Of a stretch of DNA of 64,000 nt, positions 39,461 to 61,267 are shown one piece after another. The notes below the pieces were generated by a model, which was not told where the DNA came from, ran no database searches, and saw only the letters and a program-made list of their open reading frames with translations. Position 1 is the first letter of the stretch; every line of letters begins with the position of its first letter. Origin of the DNA: an uncultured Alphaproteobacteria bacterium (lineage in GTDB: Bacteria; Pseudomonadota; Alphaproteobacteria; HIMB59; GCA-002718135); contig CACNUI010000004.1 of the NCBI GenBank assembly GCA_902623545.1, positions 36,860 through 100,859 of the forward strand, read 5' to 3'. A program made the translations under genes and the position numbers.

Positions 39461-39488
39461 AATCCCCACATTCGTGTGGGGATTTTTT
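39461..39488 (+). terminator. Rho-independent terminator/attenuator after tmoX
   Basis: AATCCCCACA-ttcg-TGTGGGGATT forms a 10-bp stem followed by TTTTTT. Confidence 0.75.
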
Positions 39489-39531
39489 CATTTTTTTATC
39501 TTAAATTTCATATTAAGGTATAGATATTAAT

Positions 39532-42632: not shown

Positions 42633-42648
42633 TTAAGTCTTTAATTAG

Positions 42649-43506
42649 TTATTCACCGAGAAGAGAATCATCTAAAATATTTGTATCATAAGCAGAATAA
42701 GAGTGCCATCCAACTACAGTTTGGTCATAATCAATTAAACTTCCTGTCATTAAACCTGATTCTTCTGCACATAAAAAAGCTAACATTCGAGCAACATCAA
42801 TAGGTTTATTTAATCTTTTAAATGGTACTTTTTTTTCTGCTTTTTTTAACCAGTCTTTTTTTCCCTTATGATATTTTTTTTGAACATCGTGTTCTGCAGG
42901 AGTGTCTGTCCAACCTAAATTTATACCATTAACTCTTATTTGATGACCGGAAACAGCATTAGCTACATTTTTTATCATAATTCCAAGTGCTGCTTTTGAA
43001 GGACTATATGCTGCTAAAAAGGGCATTCCACTATAAGCTGCAACTGATAAAACGTGAGCTATCGTGCCCTTTACTCTATCTCTTATCATAATTTTTATAG
43101 TATCCTGCATTAAAAAAAATGGTGCTCTTACATTTACATTAAACATTTTTTCAAATTCTTTTTGTGAAGTACTTAAAATTGTTCCCCGACCAGTGTAAGC
43201 GGCACAATTAATTAGAGAATTAATAGTTCCAAATTTTTTGTCAGTTTTAGATATAATTTTTTTACAATCTTTTAAATTTTCTAAATCAGCTTTTACAAAT
43301 ATGCATTTTGTTCCAAAAGCTTCAATTTCCGACTTTACCTTAATTCCATTTTTTTCATTTCTTCCACAAATTGTGATAGCTTTTGCTCCTCGACTTGCAA
43401 TTAGTTTTGCTGTTTCTGCTCCACTTCCTTGTGTACTTCCTGTTATAACAATTACCTTGTTTTTAAACTGAGTCGATAAATTTTCTTTTTTTATTTTTTT
43501 ATTCAT
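42649..43506 (-). CDS. Short-chain dehydrogenase/reductase
   Basis: TGSTQGSGAETA cofactor motif and YSPSKAAL catalytic YxxxK. Confidence 0.8.
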   Translation of the reverse strand: MNKKIKKENLSTQFKNKVIVITGSTQGSGAETAKLIASRGAKAITICGRNEKNGIKVKSEIEAFGTKCIFVKADLENLKDCKKIISKTDKKFGTINSLINCAAYTGRGTILSTSQKEFEKMFNVNVRAPFFLMQDTIKIMIRDRVKGTIAHVLSVAAYSGMPFLAAYSPSKAALGIMIKNVANAVSGHQIRVNGINLGWTDTPAEHDVQKKYHKGKKDWLKKAEKKVPFKRLNKPIDVARMLAFLCAEESGLMTGSLIDYDQTVVGWHSYSAYDTNILDDSLLGE

Positions 43507-44503
43507 AATTTATCTCTACAATTTTTTTCTTTTCATATGACTCATAGGCAGCATTTGCAATAATTAGAGCTCTTCTACCATCCTCAAATGTAACTTTTGG
43601 TCTAGAGTTTGCATTTATCGTATCAATAAAACTATTTAATTGATCACTATATGCTTGCTGATACCTCTCGATGAAAAAAAAGTGTATAAGTTCTTTAGAA
43701 CTTGTCGATGATGATGTATATCGTTCAATAGAACTTTGAGTTTGGTTATTTGAAATTACCATCCCTTTACTTCCAAATACTTCTACTCTTTGATCATAGC
43801 CATAAACTGCTCTTCTTGAGTTATTTATATGTATTAAAACTCCAGAAGCAGACTTTAAAATAAACATTGCTGTATCAAAATCCTTTACAGTTTTTACATT
43901 TTTATCAAATAAATTTTCTCCAAATGCTGATACTTGAATAATTGGATCATCACCTAATATAAAACGTGAAAGATCAAAATCATGAATAGTCGTATCTCTA
44001 AAAAAACCACCGCAAGCATTTAAGTAATCTAAGCCTGGTGCTGCAGGATCACGACTTGAAATTATAATCATTTCAAGTTCTCCAATTTCTTTGTTTAATC
44101 TTGCCTGCTGTGCTTTGCTATGACTTAAGTCAAATCTCCTATTGAAGCCTATTTGAATTGGTGATTTTATATTTTTCAAATCTTCTCTGCACCTATTCAC
44201 TTTATCAATATCCAAATCTATTGGTTTTTCACATAATACAGGTTTTGACGCATTTGCAGCCATTTTAATAAACTCTATATGTGTTGGTGTAGCTGATGCT
44301 ATTAATACAGCGTCCGTTTCTTTAGAATTAATAGCTTCTTCAGGTTTATCTACTGCTATAGCATTTAAAGAGTTTGCAATATTTTCTGCAAAATTTCTAT
44401 TTAAATCATAAACAAATTTTAATCTAGAACCTGGGTTAGAATTAATAATTTCTGCATGCATTTTACCTATTCGACCAGCACCAATCAAAGCAAAATTTAG
44501 CAT
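43499..44503 (-). CDS. Gfo/Idh/MocA oxidoreductase, myo-inositol 2-dehydrogenase-like
   Basis: FALIGAGRIGKMHA Rossmann motif, CEKPI motif and IolG-like length. Confidence 0.7.
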   Translation of the reverse strand: MLNFALIGAGRIGKMHAEIINSNPGSRLKFVYDLNRNFAENIANSLNAIAVDKPEEAINSKETDAVLIASATPTHIEFIKMAANASKPVLCEKPIDLDIDKVNRCREDLKNIKSPIQIGFNRRFDLSHSKAQQARLNKEIGELEMIIISSRDPAAPGLDYLNACGGFFRDTTIHDFDLSRFILGDDPIIQVSAFGENLFDKNVKTVKDFDTAMFILKSASGVLIHINNSRRAVYGYDQRVEVFGSKGMVISNNQTQSSIERYTSSSTSSKELIHFFFIERYQQAYSDQLNSFIDTINANSRPKVTFEDGRRALIIANAAYESYEKKKIVEINYE

Positions 44504-44546: not shown

Positions 44547-45746
44547 TTAAATCTTTATCCATTTTGAATTCAATTTTGAAGATTTTTTAGCTGCAAAAAT
44601 AAATTTTATTCCTTGCACACCATCTTCAATTGTAGGAAAGTATGGTACAATTTTTTTATTTTTTGTTTTTTTATTAATCATGTCCGCAAATTCTGTATAT
44701 ATGTTTGCAAAAGCTTCAAAAAAACCTTCGGGATGTCCTGCAGCAAGTCTTGAAGATGTTAAAGAAAAATTAGATACACTTTTACTTGCTCTAGTGATTA
44801 TTTTTGTAGGTTTATCTAATTCAGTAAATTTTAAATTATTTGGATCATCCTGAAACCACTCAACTGCACCTTTAGTTCCATAAACTCTTATTTTTAATCC
44901 ATTTTCACCACCAGTAGCTGCTGATGACACCCAGATTGCCCCTCTTGCATTGTTATTTAATCTGAGTAAAACAAAAGCATTATCATCAACTGTAAGCTCT
45001 TTTGAAAGAGTATTTACTTCTGCAGCCAACTCTTTTACCTCTAATTCTGTGACGTATCTAAGTAAATGATATGCGTGTGTTCCAATTTCTGATAATATCA
45101 TTGAGGGTCCCGAGATATTTTTATCCAACCGCCATTTTAAAGTTTTTTTCTCATCTTTTTTTTTAATTCCAGCGGTATAACCCTGAGGATATTCTACATT
45201 AACTAAGTTTATGTTGCCTATCTTACCTGAAGTTACAATTTTTTTAGCTTCACGCAACATTGGATATGCTGAATAATTATGTGTTAATGCAAAAATAATT
45301 TTATTTTTATGTACTAGTTTTTTTAATTCTTCTGCATCAGAGATAGTAGCTGTTAATGGTTTGTCACAAATAATGTGAATACCCTTTTCAATAAATGGCT
45401 TTGCTATTTTAAGATGATCACCTGCGGGAGTCATAATACCTAAAGCCTGAATTCCATCTTTCCTTTGTGACTCTATTAAAGCCATTTTATTATAGTTCTC
45501 GTAACATCTTTCATGATCTAAGCCTAAAGAAGAACCAAAATTTTTAGATTTTTTTATATTTTTTGAAAATATTCCTGCTTTAAATTCAAATCTATTATCA
45601 AATCTTGCTGCCAATCTATGAGTATATCCAATAAATGAGCTTGGCCCACCCCCAATAAAACCAATTCTAATTTTTTTATTGTTATTTAAGATATCATTTC
45701 GTAATAAATTCAATTTACCAAAGGCAATTTTTTCTTTTTTTGTCAT
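44547..45746 (-). CDS. Gfo/Idh/MocA-family oxidoreductase
   Basis: IGFIGGGPSSFIG Rossmann motif and CDKPLT motif. Confidence 0.75.
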   Translation of the reverse strand: MTKKEKIAFGKLNLLRNDILNNNKKIRIGFIGGGPSSFIGYTHRLAARFDNRFEFKAGIFSKNIKKSKNFGSSLGLDHERCYENYNKMALIESQRKDGIQALGIMTPAGDHLKIAKPFIEKGIHIICDKPLTATISDAEELKKLVHKNKIIFALTHNYSAYPMLREAKKIVTSGKIGNINLVNVEYPQGYTAGIKKKDEKKTLKWRLDKNISGPSMILSEIGTHAYHLLRYVTELEVKELAAEVNTLSKELTVDDNAFVLLRLNNNARGAIWVSSAATGGENGLKIRVYGTKGAVEWFQDDPNNLKFTELDKPTKIITRASKSVSNFSLTSSRLAAGHPEGFFEAFANIYTEFADMINKKTKNKKIVPYFPTIEDGVQGIKFIFAAKKSSKLNSKWIKI

Positions 45747-46516
45747 TAATTTACTATTCCACCGTCAACAATGTAATTTTGAGCAGTACAACCTGAACTT
45801 TGATCTGATGCAAAGAATAAAACAGCCTTGGAAATATCATCAGGTACCAACATTCTTTTAATACATTGACGTTCTAATTGTTTCTTTTCAATTTCAGGAG
45901 TAAGCCACATTCTTTTTTGTCTTTCAGTAATAATCCATCCCGGAACAACACAATTAACTCTTATATTAAACTCACCAAGATCTCTAGCAAGTGTTCTTGT
46001 TAGACCCATAATTGCAGATTTAGCTGTAGTGTAACCTGGCATTCCTCCTTGAGCCAACATCCATGAAAAACTACCTATATTTACTATAGTACCAGTACCC
46101 ATTTCTTTCATATCTTTATAGACAGCTTGAGTTGCAAAAAAATAGTGTTTTAAGTTTATATTCATTCTATCATCCCAATATTCGGGCGTTACACTATCTA
46201 GATTATGTCTTTCATCATTAGCTGCATTATTGATTAGTATACTAATGGGTCCTAATTTTTCTCTTATTAATTTTATTGATTTTTTAAGTTCATCTATTTT
46301 TTTGAGATTACATTGAATAAAAGTTGCTTTTAAATTGTATTTTTTTTCTAACTTTGTGACTAAATCACTTCCTAGTTTTTCTTCAATATCTAAAAATGCT
46401 ACTTTTGACTTTTGTGTAATAAAATGTTCAACAATATTTTCTCCTATTCCTGAAGCGCCTCCTGTAATTAGAACAACTTTGTTTTCTAGTGAAGGGTAAA
46501 TTGCAAATTCTTCCAT
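45746..46516 (-). CDS. Short-chain dehydrogenase/reductase (KduD/FabG-like)
   Basis: TGGASGIGENI cofactor motif and YTTAKSAI catalytic YxxxK. Confidence 0.8.
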   Translation of the reverse strand: MEEFAIYPSLENKVVLITGGASGIGENIVEHFITQKSKVAFLDIEEKLGSDLVTKLEKKYNLKATFIQCNLKKIDELKKSIKLIREKLGPISILINNAANDERHNLDSVTPEYWDDRMNINLKHYFFATQAVYKDMKEMGTGTIVNIGSFSWMLAQGGMPGYTTAKSAIMGLTRTLARDLGEFNIRVNCVVPGWIITERQKRMWLTPEIEKKQLERQCIKRMLVPDDISKAVLFFASDQSSGCTAQNYIVDGGIVN

Positions 46517-46543: not shown

Positions 46544-48064
46544 ATGATAATTATTAAAAGAATGTTTAACATAATAAAATTAAATGAAAAAGATAATATT
46601 GGTATTGCACCAATGGATATTCCAGAAAATGTAGACTTGAATATTGGAATAAAATCAAAAACTAAAGTTCCTTATGGTCATAAAATTTCAACTAAAAATA
46701 TTAAAAAGGGAGAATTTATTTTTAGATATGGTCAAATAATAGGTATTTCTCTTACAAATATTATGCAGGGTGAGCATGTTCATTCTCATAATTTATCTTT
46801 TTCTGAATTTGAAAGAAATTATAAAAATGATTTTGATCACCAAATTTCAAATAATATTAATAATGAATTATTTTTTAATGGTTATAAAAGAGAAAATGGT
46901 GCATCAGGAACAAGAAATTATATTGGTTTAATTAGCACAGTAAATTGTTCTGCAACAGTTGTAAAAAAAATTGCTAACAAAGTAAATTTAAAACTTAAAG
47001 AATTAAATTTTAAAAATATTGACGGTGCAGTTTGTTTAAAGCACTCTTCTGGATGTGGAATGAATACCACAAGTTATGGAATGAATGTATTTAATAGAAC
47101 TATAGAAGGTTTCAAAATTCATCCTAATTTTGCTAAAGTTTATGTAATTGGCTTAGGATGTGAGTGTGCTCAGATATCATTATACAATAATGATCAAATA
47201 AATAAAAATGTAGAATATTTAAACATTCAAGATGAAGGTGGTACAAAAGAAATAGTAAATAAAGTATCTATTAAAATTATTGATCAACTTGAAAAAATTA
47301 ATAAGATAAAAAGAACTAACATTCCAGTATCAGAATTAACTCTTGCTTTGCAGTGTGGTGGATCCGATTCATATTCTGGAATTACTGCAAATCCTGCACT
47401 TGGATTTGCATCTGATTTATTAATTGATTGTGGAGGATCATCAATATTATCAGAGACTCCAGAAATCTATGGCGCAGAACATTTGTTGTATGAAAGATCA
47501 ACAAACAAATTAAATATTGAAAAAATTGAAAAACAAATTGATTGGTGGAAAGATCATTTAAGGAAAAGCAATAGCGCACTAGATAACAATCCTTCTCCAG
47601 GAAATAAAAAGGGTGGCTTAACTACTATACTCGAAAAATCTCTTGGAGCAGTTTCAAAAAGTGGAACTAAAAATATGGTTGATGTCTTAGATTATGCGGA
47701 AAGAATAAAATATAAAGGTTTTAATTTTATGAATAGCCCTGGATATGATCCAGTATCAGTAACGGGTCAAGTTGCATCTGGTGCCAATGTCATATGTTTT
47801 ACCACTGGACGAGGCTCATGCTTTGGATTTAAACCAGCGCCTAGTATAAAGATAGCTACTAATACTAATATGTTTAATAAACTAGAGGAAGATATGGACA
47901 TAAATGCTGGAGCTATAATGGATAGTGAAAAATCCATAGAGGAAGTGGGAAAAGAAATATTTAATAAAGTTATATCAGTAGCTTCAGGTGAAAAGTCAAA
48001 AAGTGAAATTAATGAATATGGTGATGATGAATTCAATCCATGGATAATTGATCCTACGCTGTAA
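46544..48064 (+). CDS. UxaA-family sugar-acid dehydratase (altronate/galactarate dehydratase-like)
   Basis: N-terminal SAF-like domain (KLNEKDNIGIA). The large C-terminal domain has Cys-rich blocks CLKHSSGCG and GLGCECAQ. An internal Met at residue 7 is the more likely start. Confidence 0.75.
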   Translation: MIIIKRMFNIIKLNEKDNIGIAPMDIPENVDLNIGIKSKTKVPYGHKISTKNIKKGEFIFRYGQIIGISLTNIMQGEHVHSHNLSFSEFERNYKNDFDHQISNNINNELFFNGYKRENGASGTRNYIGLISTVNCSATVVKKIANKVNLKLKELNFKNIDGAVCLKHSSGCGMNTTSYGMNVFNRTIEGFKIHPNFAKVYVIGLGCECAQISLYNNDQINKNVEYLNIQDEGGTKEIVNKVSIKIIDQLEKINKIKRTNIPVSELTLALQCGGSDSYSGITANPALGFASDLLIDCGGSSILSETPEIYGAEHLLYERSTNKLNIEKIEKQIDWWKDHLRKSNSALDNNPSPGNKKGGLTTILEKSLGAVSKSGTKNMVDVLDYAERIKYKGFNFMNSPGYDPVSVTGQVASGANVICFTTGRGSCFGFKPAPSIKIATNTNMFNKLEEDMDINAGAIMDSEKSIEEVGKEIFNKVISVASGEKSKSEINEYGDDEFNPWIIDPTL

Positions 48065-48081: not shown

Positions 48082-49140
48082 TTAATTTCTTATTAAATTA
48101 TTTTCCTTTAAATATTCCCAGAATTCCTTATCTATTTTTTTATTGTATAATTCAATATTTTCATTGACCTGAGTCGATGAAGTCATACCGAGTAAACAAG
48201 ATGATACGATAGAATTATCATATGGAAATTGAATAGCAGCTTGTTTTAGTTCCAATGAAAATTTATTACATGCATCTCTTAATTTATATGCTTTTTGAAG
48301 CCAATATTCAGCGGTTTCAAAATTTTTTGGCTTTCTAACTAAACTTTCAGTCAAGTTCTTGTTCCAATTATTATCTAGTTTGGAGTAATCAAAATATGTA
48401 TTTGGACTAGGATCAATTAAAATACCACTATTAAAAACACCACCTAATACTAAAGAAATATTATTTTTCTGACATACTGGAATTAGTTCATCTAAGCTTG
48501 TTTGATCTATTAAAGTATACCGGCCAGCTAATAAAAAACAATCAAAACAGCCTTCTTTTGCAAATTCAATAAGCATTTCATTTTGATTCATTCCACAACC
48601 TATTGCTTTTACAACACCTTCGTCTCTTAACTGTATCATGGCTTTTACAGCGCCTTTTTTTGCATCCTCAAAATGCTCTGGATGATTATCAGGATCATGA
48701 AGATAAAGAATATCTATTTTATCTAAACCTAATCTTTTAAGACTATCTTCAATTGATTGCATAGCACCATCATAGGTAAAATTGAATACTGAGTCTTTAT
48801 CTTGAGGAGAGCCAATGAATTTTTCTACAGCTTTAGATTTTTTAGTATCAACAATCAGCCTTCCTACTTTTGTTGAAATAACAAAGTCTTCTCTTTTTTG
48901 TTTTTGTAAAAAATTACCTAATCTTTTTTCAGACATTCCAGATCCATAAAGTGGTGCTGTATCAAAATACCTTATTCCTTTACTCCAAGCAGTTTCAAGA
49001 GAGAGATTTGCGTCCTGATCACTTACAGCTACTGGCCAACCACCTAAGGGTGCGCATCCAAAACCAAGCTCAGATACTTCAATATTGGTATTGCTAATTT
49101 TTCTTTTATTTATCATTGTAATTTTAGAGTATACCCTCAA
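48082..49140 (-). CDS. Aldo/keto reductase (aldose 1-dehydrogenase-like)
   Basis: LGFGCAPLGG and YFDTAPLYG AKR motifs. A start at the internal Met (49116) would remove the 17-nt overlap with the upstream gene. Confidence 0.75.
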   Translation of the reverse strand: MRVYSKITMINKRKISNTNIEVSELGFGCAPLGGWPVAVSDQDANLSLETAWSKGIRYFDTAPLYGSGMSEKRLGNFLQKQKREDFVISTKVGRLIVDTKKSKAVEKFIGSPQDKDSVFNFTYDGAMQSIEDSLKRLGLDKIDILYLHDPDNHPEHFEDAKKGAVKAMIQLRDEGVVKAIGCGMNQNEMLIEFAKEGCFDCFLLAGRYTLIDQTSLDELIPVCQKNNISLVLGGVFNSGILIDPSPNTYFDYSKLDNNWNKNLTESLVRKPKNFETAEYWLQKAYKLRDACNKFSLELKQAAIQFPYDNSIVSSCLLGMTSSTQVNENIELYNKKIDKEFWEYLKENNLIRN

Positions 49141-50278
49141 AAGAATGTTGATAAAGTTTTAAAAAATCGTCTTGATTTAATTTTATCGGATTTGAGCCAG
49201 TAGAAGGATCGTTTAAAGCCATAATACTCATTTTTTCAAAATTAGAATCGTCATTAATTAATTCTTTTAAAGTATGCGGAATAGATAATAACTTTCTCAA
49301 ATCTAGTATCCAATCTAAAAAAGAATTGAATGATGGATTTGATAAATTTAAATATCTCGAAAGATCTACTATCTTATTTTCAATTGCTTCTTTATTTCTA
49401 ATTAGAACATAAGGCATAAATACTGCATTTGTTAAACCGTGATGCGTATTATAAATTGCACCAATAGGATGACTGAGTGAATGTATCGCTCCTAAACCTT
49501 TTTGAAATGCTATCGAGCCCATAGATGAACTTGCAAGCATATTTGCCCTAGCTCTTATATTATTACCATCTTTGTAAGCTGCAAATAAATTATCTTTTAT
49601 TATTTTCATTCCTTCTAAAGCTATTCCTTGTGATAATGGATGAAAAATAACAGATGAATAGGCCTCAAGACAGTGTGCCAATGCATCCATTCCAGTAAAA
49701 GCAGTTAAAGAAGGAGGTAAAGGAATAGTTAGATCAGGATCTAGTATAACAATTGAAGGAAGCATTTTAGGATGAAAAATGATTTTTTTTTCTTTTGTAA
49801 CCTCATTAGTAAAAACTGAAGCCCGTCCTGTTTCTGAACCAGTTCCTGCTGTAGTAGGTACAGCTATTATCGGAAATATTACATCACTATTTGCACGAGT
49901 CCACCAGTCACCAATATCTTCAAAATCCCATAATGGTCTTTCTTGTTTAGACATAAAAGCAATACCTTTTCCAGTGTCCATCCCAGATCCACCCCCTACT
50001 GCAATAATACCATCGTGATTATTTTGGTTGAATTTCATAACACCATCTTCCACATTTTGACCTGTGGGATTTGATTTTACATTGCTAAATATATCTGCTG
50101 ATTGATTTAAAGAATTATTAATTTTATTTATTATATCAGTTTGTAAAATACCTGGATCAGTAACTATTAAAGGATTTTTCATGTTTAAATCATCACATGC
50201 CTTTTGGATATCTTTTATTCTGTTTAAACCAAACCACATTGTTGTTGGATAATTCCAGTTGATATTTTCAATTTCCAT
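49124..50278 (-). CDS. Iron-containing (group III) alcohol dehydrogenase, lactaldehyde-reductase-like
   Basis: GGGSGMDTGK motif and metal-binding His cluster HSLSHPIGAIYNTHHG. Confidence 0.8.
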   Translation of the reverse strand: MEIENINWNYPTTMWFGLNRIKDIQKACDDLNMKNPLIVTDPGILQTDIINKINNSLNQSADIFSNVKSNPTGQNVEDGVMKFNQNNHDGIIAVGGGSGMDTGKGIAFMSKQERPLWDFEDIGDWWTRANSDVIFPIIAVPTTAGTGSETGRASVFTNEVTKEKKIIFHPKMLPSIVILDPDLTIPLPPSLTAFTGMDALAHCLEAYSSVIFHPLSQGIALEGMKIIKDNLFAAYKDGNNIRARANMLASSSMGSIAFQKGLGAIHSLSHPIGAIYNTHHGLTNAVFMPYVLIRNKEAIENKIVDLSRYLNLSNPSFNSFLDWILDLRKLLSIPHTLKELINDDSNFEKMSIMALNDPSTGSNPIKLNQDDFLKLYQHSFEGIL

Positions 50279-51657
50279 TAGATTGTCCTTATGTGATAAC
50301 TTTTTGCTCTAGTTAGATGATCAAAACCTAAAACTGATAGTGTTACACCAATACCAGTATCCTTAACTCCAGTCCATGCAAGACCTGGATCAAGATAATC
50401 ACATCTATTCATAAAAAATGTTCCAGTTTCAATTTTTGACCCCATATCTTTTGCAAATTCTGTGTCTGAGGTCCAAACACTTGCAGTTAATCCATAATCA
50501 CTATCATTCATAAGTTGTATTGCTTCCTTTTCATTAGAAACTTTCATTATACCAACTGTTGGGCCAAATGTTTCTTCTTTCATAAATTCCATTGAATGAT
50601 CAACATCTACCAAAGCTGAAGGCCCTACATAGCAATTGGAACCATCATCCATTTTGAAAATTTTATCATTAACAATATTTTTTGCCCCTACATTAATTGC
50701 TTTTGAAACTTGGGATCGAATGTATTCAGCTGCTTTTAATTTTACAACTGGACCTAAATTAGTCTCTTTTTCTAATGGATTTCCTAAAATATATTTTTCA
50801 GCAGTATTTTTAAATCCTTCAACAAATTTATCATATATCTTTTCATCCACGTAAATTCTTTCAATACCACAACAAGATTGACCAGAATTAAAGTACGATC
50901 CATCAACTAAATTTTCAATAGCGTGATTTAAATTACAATCACTTCTTACATAAGCAGGATCTTTTCCTCCAAGTTCTAATCCAGCACTTATAAATCTTGT
51001 CCCTATTGATTTTTTTATTTCTTTCCCTCCACTTACTGAACCAGTAAATAGAACATGATTAATTCTGGAATCCGATATTACTTTTGAAGTAGTCGAATGA
51101 TCTAAATGTAAGAATTGAAAAATATATTTAGGTAAGTTTGCCTTTTTTGCAGCTTCAAATAATTGTTCAGCACAAAGTGGAGTCTGAGATGAATGTTTAA
51201 GTATAACTGCATTACCTGCAAGTAAACTTGGTACGATTGAATTAACTGAAGTATTAAATGGATAATTCCAAGGAGCAATTACAAAAATTGTACCCAAAGG
51301 TTCTTTCTTTATAAAATTATCAAATTCATTATCTTTCTTTGATATTACATCCTCTAAGGCCTTATCAGAATTATCTATCATGAACTTGGCTCTTTCTTCA
51401 AATCCACGCATCTCTCCCGGGCATTGACTAATCGGCCTTCCTATTTGCTTACATAAAGTCTCTATTACTTCTTCTTGGTTTGATAAAAAACTATTAACAA
51501 ACTTACTTACGAGATTTTTTCTCTCTACTAAAGGAGTATTACTCCAATTTTTTCTAGCAATTAATGAATTTTCTAATGCATCCTCTACTTCAGTATTTGA
51601 TGCAAAATTTCTTTCTACAAATATGGTATTATCTATGGGAGTTACTGTCTTGATCAT
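50278..51657 (-). CDS. NAD(P)-dependent aldehyde dehydrogenase
   Basis: LELGGKDP and FNSGQSCCGIER (catalytic Cys) motifs. Confidence 0.85.
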   Translation of the reverse strand: MIKTVTPIDNTIFVERNFASNTEVEDALENSLIARKNWSNTPLVERKNLVSKFVNSFLSNQEEVIETLCKQIGRPISQCPGEMRGFEERAKFMIDNSDKALEDVISKKDNEFDNFIKKEPLGTIFVIAPWNYPFNTSVNSIVPSLLAGNAVILKHSSQTPLCAEQLFEAAKKANLPKYIFQFLHLDHSTTSKVISDSRINHVLFTGSVSGGKEIKKSIGTRFISAGLELGGKDPAYVRSDCNLNHAIENLVDGSYFNSGQSCCGIERIYVDEKIYDKFVEGFKNTAEKYILGNPLEKETNLGPVVKLKAAEYIRSQVSKAINVGAKNIVNDKIFKMDDGSNCYVGPSALVDVDHSMEFMKEETFGPTVGIMKVSNEKEAIQLMNDSDYGLTASVWTSDTEFAKDMGSKIETGTFFMNRCDYLDPGLAWTGVKDTGIGVTLSVLGFDHLTRAKSYHIRTI

Positions 51658-51663
51658 AAATAA

Positions 51664-53022
51664 TTAACCTCTTTCAAAATATCTTCTAAGTTGCCAATCG
51701 TTGACAGAGGTGTCATAATCTTTTTGCTCCCATTCAGCTGCATGAATATAATGTTCTAATACATCTTTACTAAATATTTCTTTTAATAATTTTGATTTTT
51801 TTGCAAGTTGGATTGCTTCATTTAGTGTTTTTGGAACTTCATTAACTTTTTTCTCATAAATATTTCCAGTATATGGTTTTTCTAACTTTAGTTTATTTTT
51901 TATTCCATATAATCCAGCACCAACTAGTGATGCAAAAGCTAAGTAAGGATTCACATCAGCCCCAGGAACTCTACATTCAATTCTTATTGATGAACCGTGA
52001 CCAGCTAGCCTAAAACCAGCTGTTCTATTATCTATACCCCAAACTGATTTAGTTGGTGCAAAAGATCCCTCTTGAAATCTTTTATAAGAATTAATGTTAG
52101 GAGCTAAAAAAATTGATATTTCTGAAAGAAATTTAATTTGTCCAGCAACATAACTTTTGAAAATGTCAGACATGCCATATTGATCTTTTGAGTTATAAAA
52201 AATATTTTTTTTAGTTTTTTTATCAAAAAGTGAGTTGTGAATATGGCATGAACTTCCACAAACATTTTTATTGTATTTAGCCATAAATGTAATTGCTTTA
52301 TTATGTTTAAATGCAATTTCCTTTGCAGCATTTTTAATTAGTATATGATTATCTGCCATGCTTAGAGCATCTGTAAAAACAACATTTATTTCTTCCTGAC
52401 CTGGGGCAGCTTCACCTTTAGAACACTCTACATAAATACCTGACTCTAAAAGAGAATTTCTTAACTCACGCATTACATCTTCTTCTTTAGTGGTTTGAAA
52501 AATCATATAATCTTCTATGTACCATGATGATTCTTTAAAATTGGTATAATTATTTTTATGTATTTCTTCATAAGTTTGATTAAATAAAAAAAACTCTAGC
52601 TCTGAGCCAACCATAGAAACAAAACCCATATCATCTGCTTTTTTTAATACATCTTTTAGTATTTGCCTTGTTGAGTGCTCAAGTGGTTTTTTTCCATTAT
52701 GATCCAGACAATCACACAAAACTATTGCTGTTTTTTCTAACCAATGAGCAATTTTAATTGTTTTTAAATCAGGTATTACGGTCATGTCGCCATATCCGGT
52801 TTCCCATGAAGAAGATTTGTACCCTGGTACAGTAAACATATCCATGTCAACTGTATAAAGATAGTCACACATATGTGTTTCTTTATAAATGTAGTCTAAA
52901 AAAGCTTTTCCAGTTACTCTTTTTCCATTTAATCTACCTTGCATGTCTGATACACATACAAGCACAGTATCTATTTCTTTAGTTTTTATTTTTTTCTTTA
53001 AATCGTTAAATGTAATACTCAT
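51664..53022 (-). CDS. Glutamine-synthetase-family ligase, gamma-glutamylpolyamine/amine synthetase (PuuA)-like
   Basis: GS blocks are SELEFF, CGSSCHIHNSL, NSYKRF and RIECRVPGADVNPYL. It is the first gene of an operon with ALDH, Fe-ADH and AKR. Confidence 0.7.
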   Translation of the reverse strand: MSITFNDLKKKIKTKEIDTVLVCVSDMQGRLNGKRVTGKAFLDYIYKETHMCDYLYTVDMDMFTVPGYKSSSWETGYGDMTVIPDLKTIKIAHWLEKTAIVLCDCLDHNGKKPLEHSTRQILKDVLKKADDMGFVSMVGSELEFFLFNQTYEEIHKNNYTNFKESSWYIEDYMIFQTTKEEDVMRELRNSLLESGIYVECSKGEAAPGQEEINVVFTDALSMADNHILIKNAAKEIAFKHNKAITFMAKYNKNVCGSSCHIHNSLFDKKTKKNIFYNSKDQYGMSDIFKSYVAGQIKFLSEISIFLAPNINSYKRFQEGSFAPTKSVWGIDNRTAGFRLAGHGSSIRIECRVPGADVNPYLAFASLVGAGLYGIKNKLKLEKPYTGNIYEKKVNEVPKTLNEAIQLAKKSKLLKEIFSKDVLEHYIHAAEWEQKDYDTSVNDWQLRRYFERG

Positions 53023-53110
53023 TATTAATTATTATTGATTAAATCTATCATTATTCTTTTCAAAGTGATAAAGAATTACACTTAAATAACTAAAATATAA
53101 AGTAAGAAAT

Positions 53111-54544
53111 ATGAAACAATACAAAAATTTTATAGATGGCAAGTGGATAGAAAGTGAATCAAAAGAAACAATCAAGGTTGATGATCCAGCTAACGGCAAA
53201 GTTATTGGTGAAATAAGTTGTGCAAAAAAAAATGAAGTAGATCTTGCTGTTGATGCTGCAAGAGGGTCTTTTGAAAGTCGAGTACTTGTCGATATGCCTT
53301 TATTAGCTAGAGCAAAACTGATGCGAAGAATTGCTGATGAAACTAGAAAGATTGCTAAAGAAGGTGGTGAGCTTCTTTGTTATGAAAATGGTAAAACCTT
53401 AGGTGCAGCAGTCAAAGAATTTAATGATGTTGCAGATATGTTTGACTATTATGCTGGTCTCACTGACAAGCTTGAAGGTAAAACTATTCCGGTTTCAACT
53501 AATGTTTTTGATTATACAGTTTTAGAACCATTTGGTGTTTCAGCACATATTGTTCCATGGAATTATCCATTATCTATGATTGGAAGATCATTATCATGTT
53601 CATTTGCTACTGGTAACTCGACTATAATAAAAACAGCGGAGTTAACTCCTTTATCTGCTACAGTATTTGCGCAAGCTTTAATAAATGCTGAGGTTCCTAA
53701 TGGATTAATAAATATAATATGTGGTTATGGAAACGAAGCTGGATCGTATTTAGTATCTCACGAAGATGTGAATCATGTTGTTTTTACGGGATCAGTAGCA
53801 ACAGGTAAAAAAATTCTTCATGCATGTGCTGATAAAGCAATTCCAGCTGTAGTAGAATTGGGGGGCAAGTCAGCAGGTATAGTATATCCAGATGCAAACA
53901 TAGATGACATTCTTTATAGTGCAAGACATGGAATTTTTGGAGTAGCTGGTCAAATATGTACCGCTATGTCCAGATTAGTTGTTCACAAATCTATTAAAGA
54001 TGAAGTGGTAGATAAATTAGTTGATTTAAGTAAGTCACTAAAAATTGGCCCAGGTATTGAAAAAGACACTGATCTAACTCCTGTAATATCTGAAAACCAA
54101 CTTCAAAAAGTTGAAGGCTATGCTAGATCTGGAATTCAAGAGGGAGCAGACGCAGCCCATGGTGGTAAAAGAATTCAACGTGATGGTTATTTTATGGAAC
54201 CAACAATTCTAAATAATGTCAAACAAGATATGACAGTTGCTAGAGAAGAAATATTTGGACCAGTACTATCTATACTTGAATATGAGGACCAAGAGGAAGC
54301 AATAAAAATTGCGAATGATACAGATTATGGTTTAGGAGCAGGTGTATTCACCAAAGACCTGAAAAAGGCTTCGTGGACAGCTAGCAAGTTAGAAGCTGGA
54401 CAGGTTTATGTCAATAAATGGTTTACAGGAAATCATGCTACTCCCTTTGGAGGCTATAAACAATCTGGGTATAGTCGTGAAAAAGGTATTGATGGATTAA
54501 AATCATATCTTCAAGTAAAAAACGTTGGAATAAGTCTATCTTAA
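53111..54544 (+). CDS. NAD(P)-dependent aldehyde dehydrogenase (betaine-aldehyde/PuuC-like)
   Basis: FTGS, VELGGKSA and GQICTAMSR (catalytic Cys) motifs. Confidence 0.85.
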   Translation: MKQYKNFIDGKWIESESKETIKVDDPANGKVIGEISCAKKNEVDLAVDAARGSFESRVLVDMPLLARAKLMRRIADETRKIAKEGGELLCYENGKTLGAAVKEFNDVADMFDYYAGLTDKLEGKTIPVSTNVFDYTVLEPFGVSAHIVPWNYPLSMIGRSLSCSFATGNSTIIKTAELTPLSATVFAQALINAEVPNGLINIICGYGNEAGSYLVSHEDVNHVVFTGSVATGKKILHACADKAIPAVVELGGKSAGIVYPDANIDDILYSARHGIFGVAGQICTAMSRLVVHKSIKDEVVDKLVDLSKSLKIGPGIEKDTDLTPVISENQLQKVEGYARSGIQEGADAAHGGKRIQRDGYFMEPTILNNVKQDMTVAREEIFGPVLSILEYEDQEEAIKIANDTDYGLGAGVFTKDLKKASWTASKLEAGQVYVNKWFTGNHATPFGGYKQSGYSREKGIDGLKSYLQVKNVGISLS

Positions 54545-55770
54545 AATCTATTGGGTGAATAAGCTTCAATATTAATATTAGGTTTTTTACCATTTGTTAT
54601 CGTAGTTATAATTTTTCCAGTTATTGCGCCTAGAGTCCAACCTATATGTTGATGACCAAAAGCATATATAATATTTTTATTTTTTGATGACTCGCCAATA
54701 ATTGGTAAAGAATCAGGTAGTGTTGGCCTTCTACCCATCCATGTTGATTTTATTTCCCCAAGTTGTGGTAAGACTTTTCTAGATTGCCTTTCAATCATTT
54801 TAATTCTTTTTAAATTAGGTTCCTTATTTATACCTGCTATTTCTACAGTTCCTGCAGCTCTCACTCCATCATGAATTTGAATTAGATAAAAACCAGACTC
54901 AGACCATGCGACAGGTCTTTTAATTAGTTTTTCATTAGTATTAAAAAGGATGTGATATCCTCTTTCTGTATCAAGGGGAAAATTTTCTCCAAGTAAATTA
55001 GCAATTTTATTAGACCACGCACCTGCACAGACAATCATTTTATCAAAATTAATTTTTTTGTTTCCTAAGTATATTTCTATATTATTTTCTTTCTGAATAA
55101 GATTAGTAACATTTTGTTTTATGTAAATCCCACCTAATTCTAAAAACTTTTCAAAAATTTTAGTGCTTATGGCTAAAGGATTTGTTGTATGTCTTGATCC
55201 AGTAAATAATTGACCTGCATAATAAACGTCAGCAATATTTGGTTCCAAATCTTTAACTTCTTCTTTGTTTAAATTTCTAAACTTAACACTATTATTTTTT
55301 CTAATGACATTGGCATATTCATAGTTGTCTAAAGATTTTTTTGTATCAAATAAATATAGATTCTCTTCATGACTAATATACTCTTGAACATTAACTTCTT
55401 TAAATATTTCGTCATAAGATATCTGGGAATGTTTTAATAAGTTTGTAAGTGAACTAGCTATTTCTTCAACTTTTTCTTTTTTACAATTTTTTAAGAAACT
55501 TAATGCCCAAGGTATATTTTTGAGAATATAAAAAAAATCAACTGCTAAAGGACCATCTTTTTTTAGAAGCATTTTAGGTACGTCCCAAATTAATCCGGGA
55601 TAATTCACAGGTACATTTGCGTAATCAGCAAAACTACATGCGTGACCAAAACTTGTCATTGTGCCAGGGTCTTCTCTGTCAATAAGAGTAACTCTAAATC
55701 CAGATTTTTTTAAAAAATAAGCGCTACAAATTCCTACAATTCCTGCACCAATAACAGCAATACTTTTCAC
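54541..55770 (-). CDS. FAD-dependent amine/amino-acid oxidoreductase (DadA/PuuB-like DAO family)
   Basis: IAVIGAGIVGICSAYFL dinucleotide fold. It is the last gene of the Pot-type transporter operon. Confidence 0.7.
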   Translation of the reverse strand: MKSIAVIGAGIVGICSAYFLKKSGFRVTLIDREDPGTMTSFGHACSFADYANVPVNYPGLIWDVPKMLLKKDGPLAVDFFYILKNIPWALSFLKNCKKEKVEEIASSLTNLLKHSQISYDEIFKEVNVQEYISHEENLYLFDTKKSLDNYEYANVIRKNNSVKFRNLNKEEVKDLEPNIADVYYAGQLFTGSRHTTNPLAISTKIFEKFLELGGIYIKQNVTNLIQKENNIEIYLGNKKINFDKMIVCAGAWSNKIANLLGENFPLDTERGYHILFNTNEKLIKRPVAWSESGFYLIQIHDGVRAAGTVEIAGINKEPNLKRIKMIERQSRKVLPQLGEIKSTWMGRRPTLPDSLPIIGESSKNKNIIYAFGHQHIGWTLGAITGKIITTITNGKKPNINIEAYSPNRF

Positions 55771-55774
55771 AAAT

Positions 55775-56671
55775 TTATCGAGATTTAATACCTCGAAGTC
55801 TCTCAGATCTTCTTCTCAATAGCTCAACAGTAGTTAATAAAACAATAGAAAGTATTACTAAACAAGTTGCCATACATAAAATGACGGGACTAATTTCTTG
55901 ACGTATTCCGGCCCACATTTGTTTAGGAATAGTTAACTGATCAATACTGGCCATAAACATGACTATAACTACTTCATCAAATGAAGTAATAAATGCAAAT
56001 AATGCCCCTGATATTATTCCAGGTAAAATTAATGGCATAATTACTTTGAAAAAAGTTCTAATTGGTCTTGCGCCTAAACTTTGTGCAGCTTTGACCATAT
56101 TCATATCAAAACCCACTAATGTAGCTGTTACAGTTATAACTACAAAAGGAGTTGCAAGAGCAACATGAGCAAGAATTACACCTGTAAAAGTGTAAACTAA
56201 ATTAATTCGAGCATAAAAAAAGAACATACCTGCAGCTGTAATAATCAACGGAACTATCATTGGTGAAATTAATATGGACATTATTAATGCTTTATAGGGC
56301 ATATGAGGTCTGCTCAATCCTAAGGCAGCCATTGTACCAAGAGCTGTTGCTATTGCCGTGGCTATTATTCCGATAAACAAACTATTAACTGTTCCAACCA
56401 TCCATTTTTTTGAACAAGGAACAGTAGAAGAAACAACATCAGCACTACAATCGCCAATCATATTTTTATACCATCTCAATGACCAAGCTTCAGGATCTGG
56501 TGGCCAAGCTAACATACCATCAGTAAAAACCATAAATGGTGAAACACTAAAAGAAATTGGAACAATTGCTATTAATGGAGCAATGAGAAAGAAAAACACA
56601 ACTGCACAGAAAAATAAATATGCATAATAGTAAGTTCTTTGTACAGGTGATGCATAACTTGGAAGTGCCAT
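55775..56671 (-). CDS. ABC transporter permease, PotC-like
   Basis: Six TM segments and EAA loop KAAQSLGARPIRTFFKVIMP. Confidence 0.8.
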   Translation of the reverse strand: MALPSYASPVQRTYYYAYLFFCAVVFFFLIAPLIAIVPISFSVSPFMVFTDGMLAWPPDPEAWSLRWYKNMIGDCSADVVSSTVPCSKKWMVGTVNSLFIGIIATAIATALGTMAALGLSRPHMPYKALIMSILISPMIVPLIITAAGMFFFYARINLVYTFTGVILAHVALATPFVVITVTATLVGFDMNMVKAAQSLGARPIRTFFKVIMPLILPGIISGALFAFITSFDEVVIVMFMASIDQLTIPKQMWAGIRQEISPVILCMATCLVILSIVLLTTVELLRRRSERLRGIKSR

Positions 56672-56673
56672 AA

Positions 56674-57951
56674 TTATCCTAGTTTTATATTATCTATGCC
56701 AACGATTTTATTGTACAGCCAATAAAAAATTAACATAACAAAAAGTAAAATTGATCCCAGCGCAGCGCATAATCCCCAATTCAATGTCGTTTTTAGATGA
56801 TAAGCTATCCAGTGACCGATCAATTGTCCATCTTTTCCACCAACAAGTTCTGGGGTTATGAAATAACCAATGGCTAATACGAATACTAGTAAACCTCCTG
56901 CACTCATACCTGGAATAGTTTGTGGTAAATATACTCGCCAAAAAGCCATAGCAGGTTTAGCACCTAAATTTTGTGCTGCTCTCATATGACTTTTTGGAAT
57001 GACTCTCATAACGCTGTACAATGGTAAAATCATAAATGGCAATAATATTTGAGTCATGGCAATCAACGTGCCCGTTTCATTATAGACCATTTGAATTCTT
57101 CCATCATCACTAAGAATTCCCAGCCAAACTAAAACTCCATTAATTACTCCATTTTGTTGAAGCATAACAATCCATGCAGTCGTCCTTACAAGCAATGATG
57201 TCCAGAAAGGAAGTAAAACAAAGATCATCAGCAGATTACTGTAACGTAGTGGTAAGTTAGCTAGTAAATGAGCAACAGGAAAACCTAGAATTAAACAGAA
57301 GAAAGTAACATAGACGCTTACTTTTAAAGTTCTAATCCATGTCTTAATGTACATTCTTCTCTTTTCATCTTGCAGAATGACATCTCCTTCTTCATTATAA
57401 GTTCTATCAAGTGCATTCCAATAATAAATAGAAGATCGTTCATTCACCATTTGATTAAATGAGTACCAATAAGTTGGGTCAGCCCACAATTTGTTAATTT
57501 CAATCATTTTATCTTTATAAGATAAAGGCTCTTCACCTTTTTTAACTATTTTTTTAATCTCTCTAGAAGTTTTTTTTATTAAACTTTTCCATCCTGATTT
57601 TGCATAATTCATTCTGGTTAATGCTTTACCTATTTGTCTTTTATCTCCATTAGCAAGTTCAAGAAAAAGATTTTTGTAAACTTCTTCAGGCGGAAGATCA
57701 TCTTCACCTTTGTCCCATTTTTTATACTCCTCAAAAGTATTTGGGAAAACTGTGTTGATTTGACTATCATCAACACTTCTCATGAGCATATCACCGATGG
57801 GGATTACAAATGTAACAACAATAAATAGCAATAATGGAAATACTAGAAAAAAAGCACGTATTTTATTTCGCCTTTCAGCTTTTTTAAGACTTTGTTTAAG
57901 TGGTATTCCGTCAGTTGTTAATAACTCTGCAGTAGAAATAATAACCTCCAA
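56674..57951 (-). CDS. ABC transporter permease, PotB-like, with a large insertion after TM1
   Basis: EAA loop RAAQNLGAKPAMAFWRVYLP. A polar segment of about 150 aa lies between the first and second TM helices. The start is uncertain: the track uses a TTG that overlaps a GGAGG. Confidence 0.75.
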   Translation of the reverse strand: MEVIISTAELLTTDGIPLKQSLKKAERRNKIRAFFLVFPLLLFIVVTFVIPIGDMLMRSVDDSQINTVFPNTFEEYKKWDKGEDDLPPEEVYKNLFLELANGDKRQIGKALTRMNYAKSGWKSLIKKTSREIKKIVKKGEEPLSYKDKMIEINKLWADPTYWYSFNQMVNERSSIYYWNALDRTYNEEGDVILQDEKRRMYIKTWIRTLKVSVYVTFFCLILGFPVAHLLANLPLRYSNLLMIFVLLPFWTSLLVRTTAWIVMLQQNGVINGVLVWLGILSDDGRIQMVYNETGTLIAMTQILLPFMILPLYSVMRVIPKSHMRAAQNLGAKPAMAFWRVYLPQTIPGMSAGGLLVFVLAIGYFITPELVGGKDGQLIGHWIAYHLKTTLNWGLCAALGSILLFVMLIFYWLYNKIVGIDNIKLG

Positions 57952-57955
57952 ATAA

Positions 57956-57979
57956 AAAGGCGAGATAAATCTCGCCTTT
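57956..57979 (-). terminator. Intra-operon hairpin after the binding-protein gene
   Basis: AAAGGCGAGA-ttta-TCTCGCCTTT forms a 10-bp stem between the SBP stop (58011) and the permease start. Confidence 0.5.
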
Positions 57980-58010
57980 AGAATAAATTACAATTTTTAA
58001 TTTATCAAGC

Positions 58011-59114
58011 TTAGTTACCCATCCAAGCAGAATAACGCTCATTAATTTCAGCACCGTAATCTGACCACCACTGTGGATCACTTACGATTGAAACTGCTAA
58101 ACGCTCTGGTGTATTAGGCATATGAGGCATAATATCTACTCCGCCTGGTCCCCAAGGCTCATTATTTTGAATGATTGGAATACCAGATGCTCTCATTGGA
58201 CCATAAGTAATGTATTTCGCCTGTTCAGCTTGTGCTTCAGGAGTTGATGCATGGAACATGAAATCAAGAGCTTGATCTCTGTTTGGAGCACCAGACATTA
58301 AACATAAATATTCTTGGTCTAGAACTTGTCCTTCCCAAATATATTCAAAGTTTTCACCTTCTGCTAAGTTAGCTGCACCTACACGACCATTATAAGCAAT
58401 CGCCATTACAACTTCACCACTTTTTACTAATTCTAGAGGTTTTGAACCAGCAGACCAGAATACAACATGATCTTTAATTCTGTCCATCACTTCAAATGCT
58501 CTATCAATAGCTCCAGTTTGGTTAGCTAAAACAGTTGGAACTGCAGTTGGTTTTACACCGTCTGCAACCATAGCTTTTTCAATTACACCAGTTGCCCAAG
58601 TGTGAATTCCTCTTTTACCTGGAAACTTTTCTACATCAAAAAAGTCAGCCATGCTTGAAGGTTTTTCACCAGGGAAAGCATCTGGGTCATAGAATACTAC
58701 GTAAGTCCAGAAAATTTGTGGTACACAACAATCCCAACCAGAGTGGTATTCAAGACCATTATTTTCCATATCTTCTAACATTGACTCACCATCAGGTCCT
58801 GGTGCAGCACTCGTAGCTATTTCAGCTGAAATATCTTCGAATAATCCTTCATCACAACCTGTGATTGCATCTGAAGGTAAAACGTCAACAACGTCCCAAG
58901 TAACACTTCCACTCTCAACCTGAGCTCTTACTTCACCTAAACCGCCGTTGTAGTTTTCAAATACAATCGCACCTGGATCAGTATATGTGTCAGCATACGC
59001 TTTTTTTTGACTTTCTGTATAAGCACCACCCCATGATGCAACAGTTACAGCACTTGCTGCAAATGGCGCAAAAATAATTGATGCGAATAAGAAGGTTTTA
59101 ATTAACTTAGACAT
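58011..59114 (-). CDS. Periplasmic substrate-binding protein, PotD/PotF (polyamine/amine) family
   Basis: I moved the start to the ATG at 59114 (MSKLIKTFLF...), which is preceded by AGGAGGA and begins a signal peptide. The track's extra 22 N-terminal residues look spurious. Confidence 0.75.
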   Translation of the reverse strand: MSKLIKTFLFASIIFAPFAASAVTVASWGGAYTESQKKAYADTYTDPGAIVFENYNGGLGEVRAQVESGSVTWDVVDVLPSDAITGCDEGLFEDISAEIATSAAPGPDGESMLEDMENNGLEYHSGWDCCVPQIFWTYVVFYDPDAFPGEKPSSMADFFDVEKFPGKRGIHTWATGVIEKAMVADGVKPTAVPTVLANQTGAIDRAFEVMDRIKDHVVFWSAGSKPLELVKSGEVVMAIAYNGRVGAANLAEGENFEYIWEGQVLDQEYLCLMSGAPNRDQALDFMFHASTPEAQAEQAKYITYGPMRASGIPIIQNNEPWGPGGVDIMPHMPNTPERLAVSIVSDPQWWSDYGAEINERYSAWMGN

Positions 59115-59242
59115 ATATATCCTCCTATTTTTAATTAGTTTAATCTTAAGATTATGTCTGTAATGATGCCGTAATAACATGTAGCTTGTTTAAAAAAAAG
59201 GCTTAAAAATAAAAAAAAGTCGCAGTATTCCGGGAAATTAAT

Positions 59243-60403: not shown

Positions 60404-61267
60404 ATGTTCATATTTGGTGTTATATTTGCTTTAATCGCTGGAGTTTTATTTGGATTAATAGGACCAACAACTAAATTAGCGTATAATTCTGATGCTGCTG
60501 TAGCTTTAGTAATTTTTATGAGATACGCAATTGCTTCAATTATAATATTACCGTTATTACCATATCAAAAAAATTTACTTTTAAATTACAGAGAAAATTT
60601 AAAATTATTTATTTTTATTTCACTCGGTTCAATTTTTCTAACAATTGGTTTGCTTACGTCAGTTATATTTATAGATGTAAGTCTTACTATTATAATATTT
60701 TGCTTATATCCAATCTATGTACTTATTTATTCAATATTAGTAGACAGGGAGAAAATAAATCTTTCTATTAAGTTGCTTTTTTTTATTACTTTTATTGGAA
60801 TTGTGTTAGTCATAGGTCCTTCCTTCAATACAGTTAATTCTATAGGTATTTCTCTTGCAGTAATTGCATCGATTGGATCGGCAAGCATGATTATTGTAAA
60901 CCAAAAAATTTCTTTAAAGGGTATTCCACCTATTCCAATAAATATTTTTATAAATTTTTTTAATACAATTATTTTTTTTATTGTCTTAAAAGTTTTTTTT
61001 AATTTAAATTTTAACTCAGATTTTAATACTTATATTCTGATTTTAATACCATCTATTTGTTATAGTTTTGCTCTTTTATCACAACTAGTAGCAATACCCA
61101 AAATTGGTCAGTCTTACACTGCATTATTTTTATACCTTGAACCAGTTGTAGGAGTTCTTGGAGCTGTGTTTTTATTAAATGAAACTTTAGAGTTATACCA
61201 GTTTATTGGAACAGTAATTGTAATATTAAGTTTAATAATTGCTACTTTTCTCAGTAGAAAGGGTTAG
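60404..61267 (+). CDS. EamA/DMT-superfamily transporter
   Basis: About ten TM helices in two repeated halves. Recognised at family level only. Confidence 0.65.
   Translation: MFIFGVIFALIAGVLFGLIGPTTKLAYNSDAAVALVIFMRYAIASIIILPLLPYQKNLLLNYRENLKLFIFISLGSIFLTIGLLTSVIFIDVSLTIIIFCLYPIYVLIYSILVDREKINLSIKLLFFITFIGIVLVIGPSFNTVNSIGISLAVIASIGSASMIIVNQKISLKGIPPIPINIFINFFNTIIFFIVLKVFFNLNFNSDFNTYILILIPSICYSFALLSQLVAIPKIGQSYTALFLYLEPVVGVLGAVFLLNETLELYQFIGTVIVILSLIIATFLSRKG

Follow-up and report, generated by a model that had tools for sequence, protein, structure and literature searches.

Three adjacent genes in a 64,000-nt stretch of DNA from an uncultured alphaproteobacterium (hereafter the window; contig CACNUI010000004.1, or C4, positions 36860-100859) probably constitute the Pelagibacterales (SAR11-type) copy of the known Eto module for ethanolamine use through γ-glutamylation, and the fourth gene that follows them on the same strand is probably a mere positional neighbour. 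The window comes from a 1.40-Mb assembly that is 88% complete, in a genome of about 30% G+C with very dense gene packing, and close homologues of the ligase encoded by the first gene carry the source label Pelagibacteraceae. The window also encodes amt, GmaS-like and N-methylglutamate synthase genes, tdm, tmm and tmoXWV-like genes, and is a predicted amine-catabolism neighbourhood of a SAR11-type bacterium. An earlier account made from the letters alone (the sequence-only reading) had described four minus-strand genes in the order glutamine synthetase (GS)-like ligase, aldehyde dehydrogenase (ALDH), iron alcohol dehydrogenase (Fe-ADH) and aldo/keto reductase (AKR). Open reading frame (ORF) calls and Pfam searches bear out this order and the positions of the genes (window coordinates here and below):

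51664-53022, minus strand: GS-like ligase, predicted ETAGA orthologue (452 aa; Pfam Gln-synt_C, E 2e-99)
50278-51657, minus strand: ALDH, predicted GAADDH orthologue (459 aa; Pfam Aldedh, E 7e-117)
49124-50278, minus strand: Fe-ADH, predicted GETADH orthologue (384 aa; Pfam Fe-ADH, E 5e-46, and ADH_Fe_C, E 2e-38)
48082-49116, minus strand: AKR, probably of the aldose 1-dehydrogenase type (ORF to 49140, 352 aa; Pfam Aldo_ket_red, E 3e-44)

The tight spacing reported for the four genes is also confirmed by reading the junctions. The GS-like stop lies 6 nt from the ALDH start, the ALDH and Fe-ADH genes overlap by 1 nt (TAATG), and the Fe-ADH and AKR genes overlap by 17 nt with the TTG at 49140 as the AKR start, or are separated by 7 nt with the ATG at 49116. 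Orthologue alignment places the AKR start at ATG 49116 (MINKRKI...), 7 nt past the Fe-ADH stop. The convergent neighbour of the AKR is itself only 17 nt distant, and in so dense a genome spacing is weak evidence of linkage; we therefore relied on conserved gene order in other lineages, which supports linkage of the first three genes and not of the AKR.

Identity of the ligase and its partner dehydrogenases

A pathway of this type has been published. In Phaeobacter sp. MED193, phosphatidylethanolamine induces an operon with the order RpiR-GGAH-EtoVWX-ETAGA-GAADDH-GETADH, where GGAH stands for γ-glutamylglycine amidohydrolase, ETAGA for ethanolamine γ-glutamylase, GAADDH for γ-glutamylacetaldehydeamide dehydrogenase and GETADH for γ-glutamylethanolamide dehydrogenase. 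EtoX has a Kd of 7.9 µM for ethanolamine, and the function of related genes has, according to the authors, been demonstrated in C. salexigens and A. tumefaciens (PMC10132767). A glutamylation-based ethanolamine pathway has been described in Chromohalobacter salexigens and proposed in Streptomyces via GlnA4, with steps carried out by a ligase, a dehydrogenase, an aldehyde dehydrogenase and an FGase-family γ-glutamylglycine amidohydrolase (PMC6529630). The sequence-only reading had offered the window's genes as a candidate pathway in their own right, and this novelty falls away, since the trio corresponds to the published Eto pathway. Its proposed chemistry, γ-glutamylation of a hydroxylated amine followed by oxidation at the alcohol and then the aldehyde level, stands for the first three genes by orthology and conserved order, and fails for the AKR.

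No NCBIfam equivalog cut-off for GS or PuuA is reached by the GS-like protein, which scores 248 bits against 429 for TIGR00653 (GlnA) and 188 bits against 650 for the γ-glutamylputrescine synthetase model NF045547. It is 49% identical to Phaeobacter ETAGA and 28% identical to E. coli PuuA. In the PDB it is matched best by 11zs (E 1e-153) and then by 5dm3 (E 3e-137), the latter of which we take to be Csal_0679, while true GS structures match at E 5e-55 or weaker and a glutamate-methylamine ligase at E 2e-37. Maximum-likelihood analysis nests the protein within the Eto-ligase clade, apart from PuuA, GlnA, GmaS and two further GS-like genes of the window; long branches lead to the outgroups, whose placement relative to each other is unsure. 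The metal-, ATP- and glutamate-binding residues of GS are all conserved, and this ligase, like its whole clade, has Phe in place of the ammonium-site flap residue Glu327. A bona fide GlnA was rejected on the TIGR00653 score and this replacement, and the ligase should be annotated neither as glutamine synthetase nor as PuuA.

The genome holds four GS-family genes in all (24483-25808, 29948-31420 and 51664-53022 in the window, and 71830-72816 on contig C5), none of which attains the score set for GlnA equivalogs. A curated model (TIGR03105) is passed by 24483-25808 alone, at 626 bits, and in a long-branched tree the C5 copy clusters with PuuA of E. coli. Given the incomplete assembly, a true glnA may simply be missing.

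The dehydrogenases point the same way as the ligase. The ALDH shares 45% identity with the product of the gene next after ETAGA in Phaeobacter and 29% with E. coli PuuC, and the Fe-ADH is 51% identical to the gene in the Phaeobacter GETADH position. PDB searches with the ALDH, Fe-ADH and AKR returned no match at E 1e-90, 1e-60 and 1e-25, respectively. A scan of species-representative genomes yielded 80 Eto loci outside SAR11, and downstream gene order could be scored in the 70 with at least 3.2 kb of downstream sequence. Ligase, ALDH and Fe-ADH are contiguous and in the same order in 51 of these, about nine more have one small gene between, and four have the ligase followed by Fe-ADH only. Eight rhizobial loci (L037, L039, L046, L049, L060, L076, L090 and L102) show a gap of ~0.6-1.0 kb, probably one small gene, between ligase and ALDH. 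Among the 67 loci with at least 6 kb upstream, an FGase gene is found in 56, a gene for the substrate-binding protein (SBP) for a transporter of the tripartite ATP-independent periplasmic (TRAP) class in 28 and an APC permease gene in 15. In rhizobia and Pseudomonas it is an APC permease that takes the place of EtoXWV as the dedicated ethanolamine importer. The Phaeobacter locus in this set (L082) has the published order, with the PF05013 FGase gene and the RpiR gene.

Within the Pelagibacterales the ligase occurs in 43 of 61 relatives and in nine of ten high-quality genomes. Pairwise ratios of nonsynonymous to synonymous substitution (dN/dS) across the genus are 0.04-0.16 for the trio (about 0.05 for the ligase) and 0.15-0.19 for the AKR, values that are only indicative, as dS is saturated (>1).

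The same neighbourhood might be assigned to a Puu-type polyamine pathway, with the GS-like ligase as PuuA, a nearby flavoprotein as PuuB, a plus-strand ALDH (ALDH2) as PuuC and a Pot-type ABC importer bringing in putrescine. Such genes do stand side by side here, those of a Pot-like importer being joined by genes for a flavoprotein of the DAO family, an ALDH and a GS-like protein, and another part of the genome codes for a PuuD-like C26 hydrolase whose Cys/His/Glu triad is intact. The logic of E. coli Puu is also shared, in that ATP-dependent γ-glutamylation masks the amine, the chain is oxidized and a γ-glutamyl hydrolase acts last. Direct comparison with E. coli PuuA, PuuB and PuuC, together with the NCBIfam cut-offs, nevertheless led us to reject this assignment as highly improbable. 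The ligase is much closer to ETAGA than to PuuA and falls far below the PuuA-type cut-off, and the flavoprotein (54541-55770) has no BLAST match to E. coli PuuB at E 1e-3 or better and is DadA- or ThiO-like, with DadA-like as its best family, below cut-offs. Moreover, the Puu pathway has no step for an Fe-ADH, its oxidation beginning at the amine via a flavoprotein oxidase and not at an alcohol, and the block of ABC importer, flavoprotein and ALDH2 is specific to the genus, whereas the trio is order-wide.

By orthology to the Eto enzymes, the GS-like ligase would use ATP to couple ethanolamine to the γ-carboxyl of glutamate, forming γ-glutamylethanolamide. The Fe-ADH would oxidize the free hydroxyl to give γ-glutamylacetaldehydeamide, the ALDH would convert this to γ-glutamylglycine, and cleavage would yield glycine and regenerate glutamate. 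Masking of the amine would avoid free aminoacetaldehyde. The likeness to the Phaeobacter Eto cluster lies in three enzymes in the same order, at 45-51% identity and with the same ligase active-site signature, and in an EtoX-type TRAP transporter directly upstream of the ligase in congeners (not in the window's genome). The differences are that the order lacks an FGase-family hydrolase, that the window's genome lacks RpiR and the TRAP and APC transporters, and that an unrelated AKR is appended downstream in the window. The GlnA4 (SCO1613) pathway of Streptomyces coelicolor, likened here by its description, follows the same proposed logic of ligase, dehydrogenase, ALDH and FGase-family amidohydrolase (PMC6529630); the actinobacterial cluster includes the FGase-type hydrolase that SAR11 lacks.

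The aldo/keto reductase and the adjoining sugar-oxidation genes

The AKR had been counted by the sequence-only reading as a member of the pathway, which we reject. An AKR like that of the window occurs in none of the 80 Eto loci outside the order. Within the Pelagibacterales only some members of the window's own genus have it; it is not found in the order's other family, and is missing from three congeners that keep the trio (G022, G019 and G003). Homologues 64-66% identical, named D-threo-aldose 1-dehydrogenase by the automated JGI pipeline, are found on other marine contigs; there, at all 11 places, the adjoining gene encodes a 500-aa SAF/GD_AH dehydratase, often with SDR, Amidohydro_2 and FAA_hydrolase genes nearby, and Eto genes are absent.

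The corresponding genes are present on the other side of the AKR in the window. A GarD/UxaA-family sugar-acid dehydratase gene (46544-48064, plus strand; Pfam GD_AH_C and GD_AH_second) is the convergent neighbour, and this gene, an SDR gene (45746-46516) and a GFO gene (43499-44503) encode proteins 61-70% identical to those of the AKR-homologue loci (66-69% for the dehydratase alone). Wherever the AKR occurs in the genus, a GarD/UxaA-family dehydratase gene abuts it. From the contexts of its homologues and its absence from Eto loci, the AKR is best placed among the sugar-oxidation genes that adjoin it, and the apparent four-gene operon is best seen as a juxtaposition of two functions. As far as the AKR is concerned, this resembles the "fortuitous fusion of two pathways" that the sequence-only reading had itself named as the outcome that would refute it. 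In non-phosphorylative aldose oxidation, an AKR-type D-threo-aldose or L-fucose 1-dehydrogenase acts together with a lactonase, a sugar-acid dehydratase, an SDR and an enzyme of the FAA-hydrolase type. Such a route offers the closest comparison, since AKR homologues lie beside dehydratase, SDR, Amidohydro_2 and FAA_hydrolase genes and the window's AKR lies beside orthologous dehydratase, SDR and GFO genes. It differs in that no lactonase or FAA-hydrolase gene is present in the window, and the enzyme name comes from automated annotation only.

Some observations weigh against so clean a division. The AKR is co-directional with the trio at its 7-nt distance from the Fe-ADH and is probably co-transcribed with it, and it may have a role in aldehyde detoxification. 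One could thus envisage a single novel four-gene pathway in which the AKR reduces or oxidizes a γ-glutamyl intermediate or detoxifies an aldehyde, an idea to which the sharing of the Fe-ADH-AKR junction by about ten congeners and the low dN/dS of the AKR lend something. Set against the 80 loci that lack the gene, its absence from the order's other family and from trio-keeping congeners, and the constant company of a UxaA/GarD dehydratase both in the genus and among homologues never found beside Eto genes, we regard such a pathway as having very little probability. The AKR should accordingly not be counted in the ethanolamine pathway.

Substrate, uptake and the terminal hydrolase

Several observations count against the trio as a conventional ethanolamine module. 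First, FGase (PF05013) was not found in the window's genome or in any of 61 Pelagibacterales relatives, including a 99%-complete closed genome, in a search in which control genomes matched as expected. Second, the window's genome contains no EtoX/DctP, APC permease or RpiR (tblastn for EtoX/DctP and APC), so that the case for ethanolamine as the substrate here depends on congeners and on orthologues about 50% identical. Third, at the position corresponding to Asn264 the SAR11 ligases have Cys and others Ala or Val, and the amine specificity of the SAR11 ligase may be altered. Finally, a subclade of the genus (G001, G011, G020 and G036) keeps DctQ-DctM-DctP, then an SDR gene, then ALDH-FeADH-AKR, and lacks the ligase at this site; the GS-like ligase of the trio was not found anywhere in these four genomes. 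The ~3.38 kb from EtoX to the AKR fits SDR, ALDH and Fe-ADH genes and not a ligase, the dehydrogenases are intact, and in the ligase-less locus L118 (G036:C1:33000-52900) DctP and SDR are 43 nt apart. This subclade weakens the claim that the dehydrogenases of the lineage act only on γ-glutamylated substrates, and the ADH and ALDH pair may work without γ-glutamylation or on another substrate.

The transporters of relatives speak for ethanolamine. In the closed, Pelagibacter-like genome G037, as in the congeners G024, G030, G004 and G003, the ligase gene has DctQ-DctM-DctP immediately upstream. The G037 DctP is 58% identical to the protein in the Phaeobacter EtoX position, and the G024 DctP matches only one solved protein in the PDB at a threshold of E 1e-30, namely 4uab/4xf5 (E 3e-129), presumably Csal_0678 with bound ethanolamine. 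The SAR11 module is thus orthologous to Eto, and its transporter, in loci that have one linked, is of the ethanolamine type. Csal_0678 is named as an ethanolamine-binding homologue in the Westermann paper, in which Pelagibacterales account for 19% of ocean etoX hits in a survey screened for conserved ethanolamine-site residues (PMC10132767). A survey of SAR11 SBPs does not mention ethanolamine (PMC11485210).

These observations bear on a further possibility, that the same chemistry acts in SAR11 on another amino alcohol or amine, such as 3-aminopropanol, 1-amino-2-propanol or an N-methylated ethanolamine. A product other than γ-glutamylglycine would explain why the GGAH hydrolase is dispensable, and the order-wide lack of FGase, the lack of EtoX in the window's genome, the Cys found only in SAR11 ligases, the extra lineage-specific partners of SAR11 clusters (an SDR and a PbfA-like lyase) and the retention of ADH and ALDH in the ligase-less subclade can all be read in its favour. 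It is harder to square with TRAP SBPs beside the SAR11 ligase that resemble EtoX and match no other solved SBP at E 1e-30 or better, with the presence of Pelagibacterales in a survey screened on ethanolamine-site residues, and with a tight ligase clade and a trio order as in demonstrated ethanolamine users. We judge another substrate unlikely, though a more serious contender than the Puu or four-gene assignments, and retain ethanolamine as the probable one.

Because the canonical FGase is absent from the lineage, the last step must fall to another enzyme. The sequence-only reading had noted that no PuuD-like gene is present in the window, and a search for class-I GATase/C26 proteins agrees, the only class-I GATase-type match on C4 being weak and lying at contig positions 322-666, outside the window. 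A PuuD-like enzyme was, however, the wrong expectation, as the published Eto hydrolase is an FGase-family γ-glutamylglycine amidohydrolase. The genome-wide search for a class-I amidotransferase-like hydrolase that the same reading had proposed was run and recovered a full-length Peptidase_C26 protein on contig C11 (5706-6401; 197 bits), which is 26% identical to E. coli PuuD and keeps the nucleophile Cys, the His and the Glu. This C26 hydrolase is a core gene, found in 50 of 61 genomes and in every high-quality genome searched, and has no linkage to the module. A GGT is encoded on contig C3 (60701-62176) and in 48 of 61 genomes. As both families are nearly universal in the order, their distribution neither supports nor excludes a role; the core PuuD-like C26 protein would be the best candidate for the cleavage, with GGT as an alternative. 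GGACT and ChaC families, searched as further γ-glutamyl-cleaving alternatives, were not found. M19 enzymes act on α-dipeptides, and we therefore did not treat the M19 dipeptidase-family gene at 61264-62250 as a candidate for γ-glutamylglycine hydrolysis. That gene adjoins one for a 553-aa protein (62305-63966) with no Pfam or NCBIfam match and is kept beside the ABC block in G022 and G019. Two SAR11 strains are both reported to lack the final enzyme of the putrescine γ-glutamylation pathway (Noell et al., PMC8437039), despite which a C26 homologue is present in all the high-quality genomes searched here.

The window's genome has lost the TRAP importer that its congeners carry. With EtoXWV gone, the amine must enter otherwise or arise inside the cell, and ethanolamine might come in by another transporter, with the adjacent Pot-type ABC importer a possible uptake route in this TRAP-less genome. 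The SBP of that importer is confined to the window's own genus and has 8jv1 as its best PDB match (E 3e-69), followed by γ-aminobutyric acid- and opine-binding SBPs; the importer, flavoprotein and ALDH2 coexist with TRAP in the full variant of the locus.

The pathway type is thus known, and what differs here is an order-wide missing FGase hydrolase and a modular occurrence of the transporter, which extends even to the ligase. That the Pelagibacterales have an ethanolamine-to-glycine route in truncated or rewired form, with FGase replaced by a non-orthologous enzyme (e.g., C26) and with modular uptake (TRAP in some species, another route here), is a tentative proposal that we hold as possible and rather doubtful. 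The commonest membrane lipid of bacteria carries ethanolamine as its head group, no bacterial group of the surface ocean is more abundant than SAR11, and SAR11 depends on external glycine, serine or their precursors. If SAR11 does convert ethanolamine to glycine, phospholipid turnover would be tied to the nitrogen and glycine economy of these cells, and under the rewired route phospholipid head groups would be a glycine source for glycine-requiring SAR11. For now the value of the result is mainly corrective, in the annotation of the ligase, the membership of the AKR and the hydrolase gap, and it turns the SAR11 terminal hydrolase into a defined gap with two named candidates (C26 and GGT).

Locus variants and neighbouring genes

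Upstream of the trio the window contains the following:

53023-53110: AT-rich divergent intergenic region of 88 nt between ligase and ALDH2, the site of DctQ-DctM-DctP (EtoVWX) in congeners
53111-54544, plus strand: ALDH2, BADH-like, 34% identical to E. coli PuuC, beside the locus in every congener examined
54541-60331, minus strand: Pot-type ABC importer (ATPase, SBP, two permeases) and then a DadA-like flavoprotein, a genus-specific block

ALDH2 is a genus-specific neighbour that may have a putative role in the module. The SBP ORF at 58011-59180 is probably called too long, as in relatives the first 14-22 codons contain stop codons and the ORFs measure 367 aa; its true start probably lies about 22 codons further in.

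The fullest form of the locus (G024, G030 and G004) runs PotA-SBP-PotB-PotC-DAO, ALDH2, DctQ-DctM-DctP-ligase, SDR, ALDH-FeADH-AKR and a GarD-like gene, and G003 has this form minus the AKR. The window, G022 and G019 have neither TRAP genes nor the SDR, and among these three the AKR is present only in the window. The loss of these genes relative to congeners, together with the missing FGase, could mark the trio as a decaying remnant that is non-functional here after transporter loss. We assign this the smallest chance of all the alternatives, as all three ORFs are undamaged and of full length, the ligase shares 88-91% identity with those of congeners at its low dN/dS, and the TRAP-less arrangement is also kept in G022 and G019.

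In the closed genome G037 the locus comprises an SDR gene, followed by ALDH, a PbfA-like lyase, DctQ, DctM, DctP, ligase and Fe-ADH. The class-III aminotransferase-fold gene inside this Eto cluster (L031:5470-6837) is identified as PbfA, (R)-1-hydroxy-2-aminoethylphosphonate ammonia-lyase, at 665 bits against a cut-off of 525. Its presence in a SAR11 Eto cluster suggests that the use of aminophosphonates or phospho-amines may be connected with that of ethanolamine; no close homologue of the G037 gene was found in the window's genome.

A 20-kb methylated-amine island at 22900-42650 (amt, GS-like, mgsABC-like, tdm, tmm and tmoXWV-like genes) is not at this site in G022 and G019, where a TauD-like gene (homologue of window 21176-22246) directly abuts an SDR gene (homologue of 42649-43506). 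The island is an insertion/deletion polymorphism within the genus.

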